Part shown: positions 13,436 to 47,863 of the stretch, in pieces
Layout: each line of letters begins with the position of its first letter
How positions within the stretch are numbered: the stretch's first letter is position 1
NCBI GenBank assembly: GCA_009785605.1
Contig: WQVY01000004.1
Location: 977 to 64,976 of the forward strand
Length of the DNA: 64,000 bases
Direction: 5' to 3'
Source of the DNA: Defluviitaleaceae bacterium
Lineage (GTDB): Bacteria; Bacillota; Clostridia; Lachnospirales; WQUN01
Notes under the pieces: model-generated
The model's database searches: none
Seen by the model: only the letters and a program-made list of their open reading frames with translations
Told to the model about the DNA's origin: nothing
Made by a program: the position numbers and the translations under genes

Positions 13436-15289
13436 TTAATAGTGGTTGGCCCTTGTTGCCACAATTGTGTACCGCTGCGAGCTGCTTTGATTGTAGCCTA
13501 GCAAGGTTAATATATCTTGCCCAGGTTGTATAGTTAGTGCATCGGTATTTATTGTGCTGCCCTGATAAATATTAACAACTGTATATATGACGGTTTTATG
13601 GAAATTTGTGATATGAATCTCATCGCCAACACTAACATTGTTTATATTTTCAAGCAAACTTGTACGCCTTTGCCCTTCGCGACCTGCAATTATTGTATTT
13701 GTATTGGCTCCGCCTAAAGGCAATGAGGTGCCGGTTACATGAGCCAAGCCGCGGCTTAAATTACCATTGTTTGCACCCATATATAGGGGTAGCTCAGCAT
13801 CTATGCTTGGGATAGTAACAAAACCAATCATCTCACTATATTCGAAGCCAAAGTGATTTAAGTTTACATTGGGCTGGTTAGCATCAAATGGGTCCGGCAA
13901 ATTACCCATACCCGACTCATATAGACGATGGTTGTATTCCGCCATCCTGTCGTATAGCCATGACAGTGGGCTTTCAAATGTGCCTTCGCCCGGTGCTGCG
14001 AGCTCACCACTTTCCATCCATCGTCCTATTTGTTCGGCGACCCACCGGTCTCTATATTCGGTTTTATAGTCATCTATCATAGTTACAAAATTATATATTG
14101 CTACCTGGCTACTGCTGCCCGGGCGGCTAAAATTTTGTGACACCCCAATACCAATAATTATGATTAGCATCAACGATATAAAGCCAGTAGCGATATATCT
14201 TGACATGCTTGGTATAGGTGAAAATCCCTTTCTTTTGCTACGAGCATTTTTACCTATTAGTGCCGGTTTTAAGGGTTTTATGGTTTGCGCTATTTTGTTG
14301 TCATTGACTCTTGCTGGCTGTGTATGGACTTCATAACTTGGGGGTGAGGTTTGACTTTCTAGGTCATTAAACATGTCGTCGATAGTTAACCCATTGTACC
14401 TATCATGGGTTACTATTGCAGCTACTGGGGTAGGATGGACCGTCCTGGGACGCCTTGCGTTAGTAGCTTCTTTTTTACCTTTTAAAGCGCTATACACAGC
14501 AAAGACGACCATAAATAACAGGAACAAGCCTACAAATATATAAATACGGATATCGACTCTTGGCTCGATAATATTCTGTACAATTTCTGCTGCCATATAC
14601 GGTATATACTCGGTTCGTCTACCACGCACAAGCCAACGATGGGAATTAATACCATATGGCGTGCATGTCATTAGCGTTACAAAGTCTTCGCCTGGTACAA
14701 TGCGGAAATGTTCCGTTTCCCATGGCAAAATCCTAATTACGTGGTCAACTTCATATGCTTTTCTAACACCCATTACTGTTATGAAAAATTTGTCACCAAT
14801 ATGTACGTTTCCTTCTAAATCATTAAACATCCTGGCGTTGGCAAGCCCTGTATGGGCCGTAAGGACAGAGTGAGTGCTTTCGCCACCAATAGGGAAAGCC
14901 GTACCCTCCATATGTCCAACACCTCTATCAAGTGCATTGTGACCGGTAGAATGGTAAATGGGCATATTAACGCCTATAATTGGTATCTCGATACGGCCCA
15001 TTACCCCGCCTACATATAAGATTTCAAAATAATCCTCTGGTAAGGGGGCTAGGTGTGCGAGTAATAATTGGGTCGTTGACCGAGCAAGTTCGTTATTTAC
15101 TTCTTCGGCACGGCGAAATTGGTTTGCGATATGCTCCTGGCTTAGCCTGGCAACTTCTTCGTCATAAATTAAAGCAATACCCCGCTGGATACGGCTATTC
15201 CACCAACTAGCAACATCTGGATAAAATAACAACGACAAGCCAAAAATCAACATTATTGCAACAAAAATTGTAGGTAAATGCCTTCTCAC
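13436..15289 (-). CDS. class C sortase fused to a second, degenerate (His->Arg, Cys->Tyr) sortase module
   Basis: GTG start with a GGGGG RBS. Module 1 has an N-terminal TM, VLTAHTG, TLMTCTPYGINSHR and a C-terminal TM. A basic linker and third TM follow. Module 2 has PDPFD, GGANTNTIIAGREG and DILTLLGYNQSSSQR. Confidence 0.8.
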   Translation of the reverse strand: MRRHLPTIFVAIMLIFGLSLLFYPDVASWWNSRIQRGIALIYDEEVARLSQEHIANQFRRAEEVNNELARSTTQLLLAHLAPLPEDYFEILYVGGVMGRIEIPIIGVNMPIYHSTGHNALDRGVGHMEGTAFPIGGESTHSVLTAHTGLANARMFNDLEGNVHIGDKFFITVMGVRKAYEVDHVIRILPWETEHFRIVPGEDFVTLMTCTPYGINSHRWLVRGRRTEYIPYMAAEIVQNIIEPRVDIRIYIFVGLFLLFMVVFAVYSALKGKKEATNARRPRTVHPTPVAAIVTHDRYNGLTIDDMFNDLESQTSPPSYEVHTQPARVNDNKIAQTIKPLKPALIGKNARSKRKGFSPIPSMSRYIATGFISLMLIIIIGIGVSQNFSRPGSSSQVAIYNFVTMIDDYKTEYRDRWVAEQIGRWMESGELAAPGEGTFESPLSWLYDRMAEYNHRLYESGMGNLPDPFDANQPNVNLNHFGFEYSEMIGFVTIPSIDAELPLYMGANNGNLSRGLAHVTGTSLPLGGANTNTIIAGREGQRRTSLLENINNVSVGDEIHITNFHKTVIYTVVNIYQGSTINTDALTIQPGQDILTLLGYNQSSSQRYTIVATRANHY

Positions 15290-15429: not shown

Positions 15430-16266
15430 TTAGGTAGCATGCTCAATGATTGGCGGATTACGTCTTTCGCGCCATATAAAAAAATGAACGACAAGAAATG
15501 CTGCAAACACAACAACGCGCCCCCGAAACCCTGTGGATATAGGCATAACTGTAACTTCATCTTGCATGTAGTATGCATATGGGACCCTAACGCCACGTAC
15601 AAGCAGCCTATGTGTATTTATCGTGATTGGCGTACATGTAATTAGTGTCATTAAATCCTTACCAGGGGTTACACGTAGAAGTTCTATCTCATGGGGTAAG
15701 ACAGTATATATCTGGTCGACTTTATATGCCAGCCGTTGACCTAAAACAGATACAAAAAAGATATCACCATAATTAAGTAAGTGTAAATCCGTAAACAATC
15801 GTACACCTGCAAGCCCAGAATGAGTGGTCAATACAGAGTGCGTACCGTATCCGCCTATTGGAAATGCCGTACCTTCTAGGTGGCCAACACCCCTACTAAG
15901 GATATTGGGTCCTGTCCCGTGAAGTACTGGAAGGCTTACATCTATTGTGGGTATATCTATCCAAGCCATTACACCTTGTACATATAGGGTCTGATTATAG
16001 TCGTATGGAAGTATGGCTATATCCCCAAGCAACAACGGCTCAGACGATTCTAAGCTGCTTAACTGTGTGTTGTGTGTAGCCGCACGGTGTAGCTGCTGTT
16101 TGACTTGTTCTGGTGTAAGCAGTGATACCATCCTATCATATTCGCGAAGGATGGCATCATGAACCAATGTTTTTTGTAAATTGCTGATATCCGGGTAAAA
16201 CAACAATGTAAACCCGGATATCATAAAAATAAATGCAAATATTGTTAAGATGTGTTTTTTTCGCAT
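15430..16266 (-). CDS. class C sortase
   Basis: Has an N-terminal TM and FYPD. Catalytic motifs are VLTTHSG, TLITCTPITINTHRLLVRG and a C-terminal TM. Its start codon overlaps the stop of the upstream oxidoreductase (TAATG). Confidence 0.9.
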   Translation of the reverse strand: MRKKHILTIFAFIFMISGFTLLFYPDISNLQKTLVHDAILREYDRMVSLLTPEQVKQQLHRAATHNTQLSSLESSEPLLLGDIAILPYDYNQTLYVQGVMAWIDIPTIDVSLPVLHGTGPNILSRGVGHLEGTAFPIGGYGTHSVLTTHSGLAGVRLFTDLHLLNYGDIFFVSVLGQRLAYKVDQIYTVLPHEIELLRVTPGKDLMTLITCTPITINTHRLLVRGVRVPYAYYMQDEVTVMPISTGFRGRVVVFAAFLVVHFFIWRERRNPPIIEHAT

Positions 16267-44538: not shown

Positions 44539-46029
44539 ATGGATCTTACAAGTTTATCATTAGCTCAGTTGCGGGAGGCCGCCAAGACATTGGGCATCAA
44601 AAATACCTCTAGATCGCGTAAAGCTGAACTGGTTGCACTAATTGAATCTCATGAAAAACCCCATCATGATGCCCCGCTTACTAACAATGCAAATGGTGCA
44701 AGTGATATGGAGCATGAGCCGGTTATAGAAGAACCGCATATTGCCAATGAAATTGTAGATGAACCTCAAATCACAGATGATATATTAATAATAACAACTA
44801 CGTCTGAAGATAATCTTCAAATCACTCGTATTTCTGACCCCCCTCAAACAGATGATTCCCCTGATGTAATAACATCCGAGCCACCGCTGCAAGAACAACA
44901 AACAGCGGAAGGTATCCTAGAAATACTGCCAGATGGTTTTGGTTTTCTTAGGGTAGAAAATTTCTTACCTAGCTCTGGGGATATATATATATCGCCTACA
45001 CAAATAAGGCGTTTTAACTTGCGTACTGGGGACTTGATTTGTGGTATCACCCGTCATGGTGGTGCTGATAAGTTTAGTGCCATATCATATGTTAAACATG
45101 TCAACGGTGAGCCGCCATATATGGCAACCCGCCGCCCTTATTTCGAATATTTGACCCCCATATTCCCCACACAGCGCATAACATTAGAAACGCCTTATGG
45201 CCAAACTACCCGCCACGAGTTAGCTCCCAGGCTTATAGATTTACTATCACCTATAGGCTTTGGCCAGCGCGGTATGATTGTCTCGCCCCCTAAAGCCGGG
45301 AAAACAGTTCTTTTAAAGCAAATCGCAAATGCGATAACACAAAACCACCCAGATGTACACCTTATTGTACTATTGATAGACGAACGCCCAGAGGAAGTCA
45401 CAGACATGCAGCGGTCTATTATAGGTGAGCACTGCACCGTAGTATCCTCTACCTTTGACGAACAACCAGAAAATCACAAGCGCGTAGCCGAGATGGTACT
45501 AGAAAGAGCAAAGCGTCTGGTAGAACAAAAAAAAGACTTGGTTGTACTTTTAGATTCTATAACAAGGTTGGGGCGTGCGTATAATCTTACGATACCCATG
45601 GGTGGGCGTACATTGTCTGGCGGGCTTGACCCTGCAGCGCTTTATATGCCAAAGAAGTTTTTTGGTGCTGCGCGCAATGTAGAGGAAGGCGGCTCATTGA
45701 CAGTGCTTGCTACGGCACTGGTTGATACTGGCAGCAAGATGGACGATGTAATTTTTGAGGAATTTAAAGGTACTGGCAATATGGAGTTGGTGCTGGATAG
45801 GCGCATGGCAGAGAGGCGTATCTTCCCGGCAATAGATATTATGCGCTCTGGTACACGACGTGAGGAGCTGTTACTTTCGGCTAGGGAATTGGATGCTATG
45901 TATACATTGCGTGACATGAGCGGACGCATAACTCCTGCAGATTTTTCTGAAAAAGTTACCGATATGATGCTAAAATCTCAAAACAACAAGGAATTTGTTA
46001 ATGGGTTTATGGAAGTAAAGCGGTATTAG
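44539..46029 (+). CDS. rho: transcription termination factor Rho with an acidic N-terminal insertion
   Basis: Has an N-terminal SAP-like [13 protein letters not shown], a ~100-aa acidic insert, an RNA-binding OB region (GFGFLR) and Walker A PPKAGKT. Confidence 0.95.
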
Positions 46030-46153
46030 AAGCTATGTTCATAGAATGGAAAAATTAATTTCCTATTACATACCTTCACATATCGTACATTTACAGATAT
46101 ACTGGGATAGTGAAAGTTAAAACTGCTAACTATATCAGTACGGAGATGATTTT

Positions 46154-46333
46154 ATGATTTTAAATGCATTGCGCTTTGCCCTCGCGGGTACACCTTCATA
46201 TGTTCTTCCTCTAACAGGCGGCGCTGGGCCACTTGTGGTTACGGCTATTGGGATAGGTTTGGCGGTGCTTAGTCTATTATTGTTTTTCTTGAGAGGGAAA
46301 TCAGACAATAAAAAGAAGAAGCCCAGGAAGTAA
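46154..46333 (+). CDS. 59-aa mini-protein consisting of an LPLTG cell-wall sorting signal (not in the ORF track)
   Basis: GGAG at 46142-46145 lies 8 nt before the ATG. My translation is MILNALRFALAGTPSYVLPLTGGAGPLVVTAIGIGLAVLSLLLFFLRGKSDNKKKKPRK. It contains LPXTG, a hydrophobic helix and a Lys/Arg tail. An in-frame stop lies at 46127. Confidence 0.45.
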   Translation: MILNALRFALAGTPSYVLPLTGGAGPLVVTAIGIGLAVLSLLLFFLRGKSDNKKKKPRK

Positions 46334-46339
46334 CTAATA

Positions 46340-46369
46340 TTGACATCCCATATTTTGACGTGATAAACT
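46340..46369 (+). promoter_or_regulatory. candidate sigma-A promoter of the pyr operon leader
   Basis: TTGACA (46340-46345), an 18-nt spacer, then TGaTAAACT (extended -10). Confidence 0.4.
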
Positions 46370-46478
46370 CCCCTCCGGTAACGCGAAAGGGTGGTTTTGA
46401 TGAGTGCCTTTGAATGCAACAAAGTACGTAACGGTGCACACACGTGCATTTATTTTATATTTACAACTCAAATATGAG

Positions 46479-46506
46479 GTGCAGACAATTCGTCTGCACT
46501 TTTTTT
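46479..46506 (+). terminator. intrinsic terminator / attenuator in the pyrC leader
   Basis: GTGCAGAC / GTCTGCAC stem with a 5-nt loop and seven T. It ends 40 nt upstream of the pyrC ATG. Confidence 0.65.
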
Positions 46507-46546
46507 GTGCGTTCATAAAATATAGTCCGAAAGGGGTATCATATCA

Positions 46547-47863
46547 ATGACGAATGAATCAAGGATTCTTATTAAAAATGGGCGAGTACTAGACCCAGCC
46601 AACGAGACAGATGCAGTGATGGATATTTTTATAGAAAATGGTGAAATCCGCGAAACCGGCGTTAATCTTGAACATGAGAGTTGTGTGAAAATTATAGACG
46701 CCACAGATATGTGGGTAGTCCCTGGGCTAATAGACATGCATGTCCACTTGCGAGACCCTGGTGGGCATCATAAAGAAACCATACAAACTGGCACGCTTGC
46801 CGCTGCCGCCGGCGGTTTTACAACCATATGCCCTATGGCAAACACAGACCCAGTAACAGACACAGCCGATGCTGTTGAATATATACTCTCGACTGCGGAA
46901 AGGGAAGGTGTCGTGCACATTGTCCCTATAGGAAGTGTTACCAAGGGCCTACTTGGGCAAGAGTTAAGCGCTATAGGTGAGATGCAGGCAACAGGAATAT
47001 GCGCAATAAGCGATGACGGTAAAGCAGTGGCAGACGCAGCCCTGTTTAAGACCGCACTCTATTATGCCGCAAAACTAGAACTGCCGGTTCTAACCCACGC
47101 AGAAGACCATAAACTGACGGGCAAAGGGCAAATAGGCGCCGGCCCCCACGCCAAAAAGCTGGGCTTGACAGGCATTCCCAACGAGTCTGAAGAAATAATG
47201 ATATCACGCGATATAATTTTAGCCCGCGCAACAGGAGCACATCTTCATATATGTCATGTTAGCACAGCAGAAGGGGTGGTACACATGCGTGCGGCAAAAG
47301 AGCAAGGGCTACCCATAACAGCAGAAGCTTGCCCACACCACTTTATGCTTGCAGATGAAGATATCCCTGACTGTGACACCAATTATAAGATGAGCCCACC
47401 GCTAAGAAGCCGAAAAGACGTAGAGGCCATTAAGGCTGCATTAAAAGACGGCACAATATGTGTTATAGCAACAGACCATGCCCCTCATCACGAAGACGAC
47501 AAAAATGGAGAGTTCGAACAAGCCGCAAACGGCATAATAGGGCTTGAGACCGCTGTCCCACTTTGCATAACCGAGTTAGTACACACAGATATCCTTACCC
47601 CGTTAGAGCTAATAAAAAAGCTAACCGTAAACCCTGCGAGCATCTTGGGGCTTGATAAGGGGACTCTAAGCATAGGCAAGATGGCAGATGTGACTGTAAT
47701 AGACCCGAATATGCAATATAGCATAGATAAGGAAACCTTCCTCTCTAAAAGCCGTAACACCCCATTCCATGGCAGAGAGGTACGCGGGAAGGTTGTGTAT
47801 ACATTGGTAAACGGTAAAATTGTATATGAGTATAAAGAGGAGGGTAAACAAGATGTTAATTGA
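46547..47863 (+). CDS. pyrC: dihydroorotase
   Basis: Contains the DMHVHLRDPG metal-binding motif and ATDHAPH. Confidence 0.9.
   Translation: MTNESRILIKNGRVLDPANETDAVMDIFIENGEIRETGVNLEHESCVKIIDATDMWVVPGLIDMHVHLRDPGGHHKETIQTGTLAAAAGGFTTICPMANTDPVTDTADAVEYILSTAEREGVVHIVPIGSVTKGLLGQELSAIGEMQATGICAISDDGKAVADAALFKTALYYAAKLELPVLTHAEDHKLTGKGQIGAGPHAKKLGLTGIPNESEEIMISRDIILARATGAHLHICHVSTAEGVVHMRAAKEQGLPITAEACPHHFMLADEDIPDCDTNYKMSPPLRSRKDVEAIKAALKDGTICVIATDHAPHHEDDKNGEFEQAANGIIGLETAVPLCITELVHTDILTPLELIKKLTVNPASILGLDKGTLSIGKMADVTVIDPNMQYSIDKETFLSKSRNTPFHGREVRGKVVYTLVNGKIVYEYKEEGKQDVN

Follow-up and report, generated by a model that had tools for sequence, protein, structure and literature searches.

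The 64,000-nucleotide stretch of DNA from a termite-gut Defluviitaleaceae bacterium (the window; GenBank assembly GCA_009785605.1, contig WQVY01000004.1, forward strand, positions 977 to 64,976) harbors a free-standing open reading frame (ORF) of 59 amino acids (aa) upstream of the pyr operon. Judged by its substitution pattern and its conserved expression signals, this mini-ORF is a genuine small gene under selection, equipped with a promoter and a ribosome-binding site of its own, and it encodes a sorting signal only. The favoured reading, given a probability of roughly 55 %, is that of a dedicated small gene whose product would adopt an N-out/C-in topology and engage a sortase, the function residing in the motif, helix and tail and being exerted via sortase engagement or via the C-terminal peptide (C-peptide) retained in the membrane. 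Sorting signals are usually regarded as throw-away address labels that large surface proteins carry; here, a gene family consists of this tag alone.

The tripartite signal of the 59-aa protein exceeds chance. Residues 18-22 form the pentapeptide LPLTG, which is followed by a hydrophobic segment and a C-terminal positive tail, and the NCBIfam model TIGR01167 (LPXTG_anchor) gives 21.6 bits over residues 17-49 (cut-off 15.9, E 2.4e-4), bearing out the description of a textbook sortase signal in the original prediction, which was made from the letters of this DNA. The 17 residues before LPLTG contain no Sec signal peptide (judged by length alone), and no Pfam or NCBIfam domain besides the anchor, hence no passenger, was found in the protein. 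In a six-frame search of the entire genome (2.62 Mb, 134 contigs, 89.85 % complete; G000 in Table 1), TIGR01167 gave four places at E<=0.1, the mini-ORF included. The other three are the ends of 1180- and 2074-aa frames and a 177-aa frame lying, by position estimate, at a contig end. An LPL[TSA]GG motif near the frame end occurs in 8 further frames of at least 110 aa (T in five, A in two, S in one), whose helices are unlike that of the mini-protein. The best match in the ESM Atlas (0.81, a score that ranks as a lead) is a cluster of 45-aa "LPXTG anchor" proteins. The small sortase-dependent surface proteins of the EF2685/EF0750 type (NF053819) are likewise very small LPXTG proteins. However, the 59-aa protein matches that 105-position model weakly and at the C-terminal positions 68-104 only, so that the first two thirds of the model have no counterpart and the anchor part alone is shared; with 15.6 bits against a cut-off of 47, membership was rejected.

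The ORF and its translation are exactly as originally described, with a GGAG ribosome-binding site, an ATG and an in-frame stop codon 27 nucleotides (nt) upstream. Because the eight codons between that stop (TAA, 46127-46129) and the ATG include no ATG, GTG or TTG, the ATG at 46154 is the sole possible start and the ORF cannot be longer. Relatives were sought in several collections. A word-indexed search of proteins 32-104 aa long gave 15 candidates, which included 12 relatives of 52-95 aa in addition to the protein of the window, and a metagenome scan returned 11 loci, 10 of them true relatives (L022-L031). The other, L032, was discarded as a spurious match of 33 residues (55 % identity) that lies within a 930-aa frame, in DNA whose translations are rich in Ala, Arg, Gly and Pro. 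None of the 90 stretches matched by a pattern scan of genome contigs was confirmed as a relative. The window and the ten metagenome loci make up the 11 loci compared below. Each has a predicted mini-protein of 52-87 aa at the syntenic or related site and none has a full-length surface protein, which answers the question, raised with the original prediction, of what stands there in related genomes. The promoter pattern T[TC][TC]ACA-17-TATA[AC]T (P1) is found in 11/11 loci, with 29-38 nt between the -10 box and the Shine-Dalgarno sequence (38 nt in 7 loci). The block GGAGATGATT is identical in all of them, and an in-frame start follows 6-9 nt past the GGAG in each; loci in which TTG was picked first have ATG as the next codon, and the start in L030 is GTG. 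A three-codon ORF (ATG ATT TTA TGA, 46146-46157) overlaps the start of the mini-ORF inside the invariant block, and its ATG reads in frame with the main ORF in five loci; it was set aside, as its ATG directly abuts the Shine-Dalgarno sequence. An antisense ORF of 104 aa overlapping the mini-ORF (46135-46449) was also rejected: it is not conserved, an antisense ORF of at least 90 aa being present in L024 only among the 10 related loci.

Selection was measured across the 11 loci on a core of 36 codons that runs from two residues before LP to where the tail starts. The mean proportion of synonymous differences (pS) is 0.62 versus 0.14 for nonsynonymous ones (pN), and the ratio of the nonsynonymous and synonymous rates (dN/dS) has a median of 0.118 and a maximum of 0.366 in the 48/55 pairs with finite dS. 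Variable sites number 20, 10 and 33 of 36 at the three successive codon positions, and the two shifted frames of the core lack the selection pattern. The loci are not near-identical strains, since their pS relative to the window is 0.52-0.82, and all four Pro codons are in use at the invariant P of the motif. Mean identity of the core is 79.6 %, compared with 79.5 % for the adjacent dihydroorotase (36 pairs, the core being higher in 18). Among 23 aligned small proteins (P0005 was left out), residues M1, L18, P19, G22, G23, G25, V29, T30, G33, A37, S40 and K55 are invariant, and T21 and K53 are at least 90 % conserved. T30, G33, A37 and S40, spaced 3-4-3, would fall on one helix face, from which we infer a helix-helix contact pattern. 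Such strong selection on a bare tag suggests a role for the tag as such; since the gene has a separate promoter and changes as slowly as a core metabolic enzyme, the tag or its membrane remnant would have to act in its own right.

The N-tail does not share this conservation. By database starts, it ranges from 6 to 49 aa in 24 proteins (median 17.5) with many indels, and it contains 0-2 K/R and 0-3 D/E, Lys occurring in 1/24 proteins. The C-tails of the family carry 7-11 K/R. Since the motif, helix and tail are conserved and the N-tail is not, function most likely lies in sortase engagement or in a membrane-retained C-peptide, and the uneven distribution of K/R predicts an N-out/C-in topology. 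The 59-aa protein would thus insert with its short, nearly uncharged N-tail across the membrane and its polybasic tail inside, so that LPLTGG would sit on the outer face of the membrane, where it lies in an ordinary sorting intermediate. There, a sortase of the genome would bind it, probably cleaving between T and G; in most lineages, cleavage by a sortase is probable. The output might be to report on or regulate sortase or lipid II capacity, or to signal to a membrane partner via the invariant small-residue helix face, and would less likely lie in wall display of the N-tail. Insertion of the mini-protein would resemble that of Pf3-coat-type proteins, which cross the membrane via the YidC route and need no signal peptide; a YidC homologue is present in the genome. 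Like the 59-aa protein, such N-out single-pass proteins combine a basic C-tail with one helix and an N-tail that is short and carries little charge, a likeness in topology only, with no homology.

A precedent for an active membrane remnant comes from Streptococcus gordonii, where the membrane C-peptide left by sortase is sensed by the histidine kinase SGO_1180 (PMC11326707, PMC11502775, both citing Hall 2019). As described there, the active molecule is the membrane-retained part of the signal, and the helix and tail are the most conserved parts of the mini-protein. The S. gordonii C-peptide is, in the same account, a by-product of adhesin anchoring, whereas that of the mini-protein would come from a dedicated gene. 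No histidine kinase is a conserved neighbour of the mini-gene at the related loci. More tentatively, the bare signal may be made on purpose in one of two ways: cleavage would yield a conserved membrane C-peptide, or binding would occupy a sortase, a sortase-fold protein lacking the catalytic Cys, or one fused to a helix-turn-helix (HTH) domain. In either case, cells would possess their own means of reporting or regulating sortase and lipid II capacity, and "signal-only" sortase ligands would be an undescribed class of small proteins. A natural minimal substrate would make C-peptide or sortase-occupancy signalling directly testable, and it may offer the shortest natural sortase substrate for enzymological work on the class-C-only sortase sets of gut Clostridia, which are poorly known, within the limits set by a narrow distribution and uncultured hosts. 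Titles and abstract openings of the literature on LPXTG/sortase small ORFs, small membrane proteins and the termite gut revealed no free-standing sorting-signal gene, which is no proof of absence.

The family profile was searched with HMMER against all 1.84 billion representative proteins (E<=0.001). The 23 matches comprise 14 small proteins (52-99 aa), which include the entire top 12, and 9 large ones (283-1949 aa), mostly matched at the C-terminus, the match in one of 994 aa being internal; the three best large matches (1836-1949 aa) reach E about 1e-9. At E<=1e-5, 16 of 401 sampled genomes of the order gave 26 places, 24 of which are ends of frames of 475-2703 aa. In a family-level sample, 3/40 genomes matched, all belonging to one genus (g1). 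The best match in G034, a genome of the same genus as the window, is the end of an 1850-aa frame (4e-23). This frame and three clade adhesins of 1836-1949 aa (P0023, P0024, P0027) bear the nearest known signals, a "GGxGPxxVTxxGxxLAxxS" subtype that reads LP[LM]TGG-[EDA]G[PA]-[LM][IL]VT-xxG-xxLAG-xSL. They have the same tripartite build as the mini-protein, the same aromatic-acidic-LPxTGG context and the conserved helix residues; unlike them, the mini-gene is free-standing, encodes 52-87 aa from its own promoter and start, and has no signal peptide or passenger. As no large relatives were recovered other than giant adhesins specific to the clade, with the match in their C-terminal signals, the mini-gene likely goes back to the 3' end of a giant adhesin gene, which would have become a gene in its own right and been retained since. 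No large protein of this signal subtype was found in the window's own genome, at its 89.85 % completeness; the next best match there has an E of 0.049.

Several observations weigh against the favoured reading. Position 4 of the motif is Tyr in L023 (LPLYGG) and Ser in L022 (LPLSGG) among the 11 loci. Ser and Ala are seen at this position in genuine signals of the window's genome and Tyr is not, which means that cleavage is possibly dispensable in at least one lineage. The Pfam model PF00746 scores 19.7 bits, 0.3 short of its cut-off of 20. An N-out topology in a protein lacking a signal peptide is consistent with the charges, insertion and cleavage themselves being predictions. The adhesin signals have the same helix pattern, and helix conservation may therefore be a property of the signal subtype rather than of a new function. 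The family is also narrow, the only short frames in the order sample being those of G000 (67 aa) and of another genome, G035 (83 aa). No RNA run turned up for this DNA; of four DNA runs that did, two contain the stretch and may be where it comes from. Finally, the only neighbour conserved across the related loci is the pyr promoter; genes for sortases, kinases or proteases are not conserved beside the mini-gene.

A sortase-independent or at least uncleaved role in the membrane is possible, though rather doubtful: the helix and tail would bind a sortase or another membrane protein, and LPxTGG would serve as a docking or structural element. The conserved helix face T30/G33/A37/S40 and the LPLYGG variant of L023 fit such a modulator, and so do the sortase-fold domains of the genome that lack the catalytic Cys, which could bind the motif and not cleave it. 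Furthermore, SafA sets a precedent for small membrane modulators of sortases, since it protects or modulates the actinobacterial housekeeping sortase (PMC9282373). As portrayed there, SafA resembles the mini-protein in being a small single-pass membrane protein whose role is tied to a sortase. In contrast, its gene lies directly downstream of srtA and it acts via an FPW motif (PMC9282373), while the mini-gene has neither: its neighbours are rho and pyrC, no sortase gene adjoins it and there is no FPW in its sequence. The mini-protein, unlike SafA as described in that source, carries LPxTG, and the two sequences are unrelated. An uncleaved role is further disfavoured by the motif itself, as its L, P, G and G are invariant despite saturated synonymous change, as expected of a true recognition site, and as genuine sortase substrates of the genome carry the identical motif.

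Alternatively, the signal might be a processing handle and the variable hydrophobic N-tail the product, a species-specific peptide either linked to peptidoglycan or released. A variable N-terminal part joined to a conserved recognition part is the architecture expected of such a precursor, the N-tails are hydrophobic and nearly free of Lys, and within subgroups they show conservation (M-I-x-x-S-E-I-M-R-F and M-x-N-L-L). However, even between loci that share about 80 % pyrC identity the N-tails differ in length and sequence and by many indels, some N-tails measure 6-10 aa only, and selection is strongest on the part that would be discarded. A cargo peptide is thus unlikely.

Table 1. Positions of the mini-gene, its parts and neighbours, and the sortase genes discussed in the text (window positions unless a contig or locus is given; G000, the window's genome).
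Feature	Position	Strand	Details
59-aa mini-ORF	46154..46333, stop codon included	+	ATG at 46154, TAA at 46331-46333; translation MILNALRFALAGTPSYVLPLTGGAGPLVVTAIGIGLAVLSLLLFFLRGKSDNKKKKPRK
Promoter P1 of the mini-gene (putative)	46075..46103	+	TTCACA-17-TATACT; consensus scan
Shine-Dalgarno GGAG and 8-nt spacer	46142..46153	+	GGAG at 46142-46145, 8 nt 5' of the ATG; within the invariant block GGAGATGATT
N-tail, residues 1-17	46154..46204	+	MILNALRFALAGTPSYV; one Arg, no Lys
LPLTGG sortase motif, residues 18-23	46205..46222	+	
Hydrophobic helix, residues 24-46	46223..46291	+	AGPLVVTAIGIGLAVLSLLLFFL; 23 aa, mean Kyte-Doolittle hydropathy 2.39
Cationic tail, residues 47-59	46292..46330	+	RGKSDNKKKKPRK; 13 aa, 8 K/R, 1 acidic residue
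Promoter P2 of the pyr operon (putative)	46340..46369	+	TTGACA-18-TAAACT with upstream TG; consensus scan
pyr leader	46370..46546	+	5' hairpins and intrinsic terminator (46476-46510)
pyrC (dihydroorotase)	46547..47863	+	first pyr operon gene
rho	44539-46029		
Class C sortases in the window	13436-15289 and 15430-16266		
Cys-less class-C-like sortase homologues	G000:C89:6990-7769 and G000:C21:1325-2041	- and -	
366-aa HTH-sortase protein	G000:C89:1704-2801; locus L010:1459-2556	-	

The location between rho and the pyr operon, as originally given, is correct, but rho proves incidental, since the upstream neighbour varies between loci and the conserved neighbour is the pyr promoter. Named from N-terminal sequences only, the upstream neighbours are a divergent membrane protein in L022, L026 and L031 and a PEP-carboxykinase-like gene in L027, L028 and L029. 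Downstream, pyrC follows in the window and in 8/10 metagenome loci, 210-350 nt past the ORF stop, and the ORFs past pyrC are taken as the remaining pyr operon, following their original description. Of the other two loci, L029 ends at the stop of the mini-ORF, and in L028 another 230 nt of unrelated DNA follow. Between mini-ORF and pyrC there is a further promoter-like site, P2, stronger than P1 and starting 6 nt after the stop in the window. It is conserved in 9/9 loci with pyrC, the -35 box starting between 19 nt before and 26 nt after the last base of the ORF. As P2 abuts the mini-ORF, there is no terminator between them and transcripts of the mini-gene must enter the pyr leader. This leader contains conserved 5' hairpins, a segment able to compete with one arm of the terminator, and a 10-pair terminator, and the conserved promoter/leader stretch (46340-46546) is also found in L022-L027, L030, L031 and L035. 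Rfam gave no match for the 5' untranslated region, the ORF or the pyr leader, save a weak STnc40 match on the terminator (24.2 vs 45 bits), and nothing relevant in L024, L025, L028 or L030. No PyrR homologue was found in the genome (best 23.5 bits, cut-off 138). The pyr promoter and leader are a candidate for an undescribed pyrimidine-responsive attenuator.

In regulation of the Escherichia coli pyrBI type, the leader ORF lies inside the leader transcript of the operon and reaches the terminator region. The mini-ORF might correspondingly be a pyr leader peptide or regulatory upstream ORF whose translation is coupled to the attenuator: it abuts the pyr promoter in all nine loci with pyrC with no terminator before the leader, this junction is kept while upstream neighbours vary, and neither PyrR nor an Rfam element accounts for the leader. 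Yet this is very improbable. The operon's own P2 sits between the ORF and the leader, and the ORF stop falls about 143 nt before the terminator stem, an arrangement unlike that of an attenuator leader peptide. Moreover, conservation of the whole peptide and its match to an LPXTG profile are atypical of leader peptides. The two elements also occur separately. G034, with a pyrC 68-70 % identical, has P2, leader and terminator and no mini-ORF; L028 and G035 have the ORF without pyr. G035 has none of P2, pyr leader, terminator or mini-ORF at its pyr site; its 63-aa family member lies elsewhere (L015:1373-1564, minus strand), 150 nt downstream of a 1917-aa LPXTG protein. That member stands behind the terminator-like hairpin of the adjacent LPXTG gene and has its own promoter-like site (TTGCCA-16-TATAAT) and Shine-Dalgarno sequence. 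Because the pyr site of G034 lacks the ORF, the G035 member is elsewhere and L028 has the ORF without pyr, the pyr linkage of the mini-gene is read here as historical rather than functional.

The original prediction had left a choice between a functional bare signal and a 3' end orphaned by the deletion of a surface-protein gene. Conservation as a functional gene and probable descent from an adhesin 3' end both stand, and the idea of a present-day relic does not. A decaying, functionless remnant would share the descent from giant-adhesin C-terminal signals and the aromatic then acidic residues before the motif, which resemble the ...F[EDQ]LP context of the adhesins, but it is hardly credible in view of a dN/dS of 0.12 with saturated dS across the 11 loci, of a promoter, Shine-Dalgarno sequence and start kept in 11/11, and of the absence of an adhesin of this subtype from G000 (a genome 89.85 % complete) that could act as gene-conversion donor. 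Equally improbable is a type I toxin-like small membrane peptide whose helix and basic tail harm the membrane, as its size, single helix and polybasic tail would suggest, because the invariant LPxTGG and the sorting-signal homology would go unexplained and the opposite strand showed neither a conserved gene nor a promoter, its ORF not being conserved.

Enzymes that could act on the mini-protein are encoded elsewhere. The window's sortase genes are far from the mini-gene, as the original prediction had it (about 30 kb), and the window's 617-aa protein contains two sortase stretches. Nine sortase-domain matches were found in the genome, seven class-C-like and two class-B-like, and none of these domains scores best as class A. 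In two class-C-like homologues, the catalytic Cys is replaced by Thr or Pro (LVTLVTTHTRRRG, LVTLLTPHTRRRG). An LPXTG signal is found no more than about 50 nt from the copy on contig C89; two giant LPXTG genes occupy the same contig as the C21 copy, and the closer of their signals is about 8 kb off. In the 366-aa protein, an N-terminal XRE-type HTH domain (NF041951-like, residues 30-93) is joined to a membrane segment and to a class C sortase domain with its Cys intact (TLMTCVPYG), and the whole looks like a membrane-tethered regulator with the sortase domain outside. The two class-B-like sortases are in tandem (G000:C16:17551-19578, minus strand; 330 aa each) with long Pro/Glu/Thr-rich linkers, about 9 kb from the 2074-aa protein, whose anchor the LPL[TSA]GG pattern missed. 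The contig of the G034 giant adhesin, where a candidate enzyme was sought, contains no sortase.

Some features of the surrounding DNA deserve mention. In L028 (1297-1527), the mini-ORF is followed by G+C-rich, structured-looking DNA with another promoter-like site, which is not the pyr promoter, and Rfam gave no match after the mini-ORF there. The 63-aa member of G035 adjoins a small gene pair that, from sequence alone, resembles an antitoxin and a PIN-type toxin. In the window, rho encodes 496 aa, of which residues 2-488 span positions 5-411 of a 413-position model, so that about 80 aa must be inserted in its N-terminal part.

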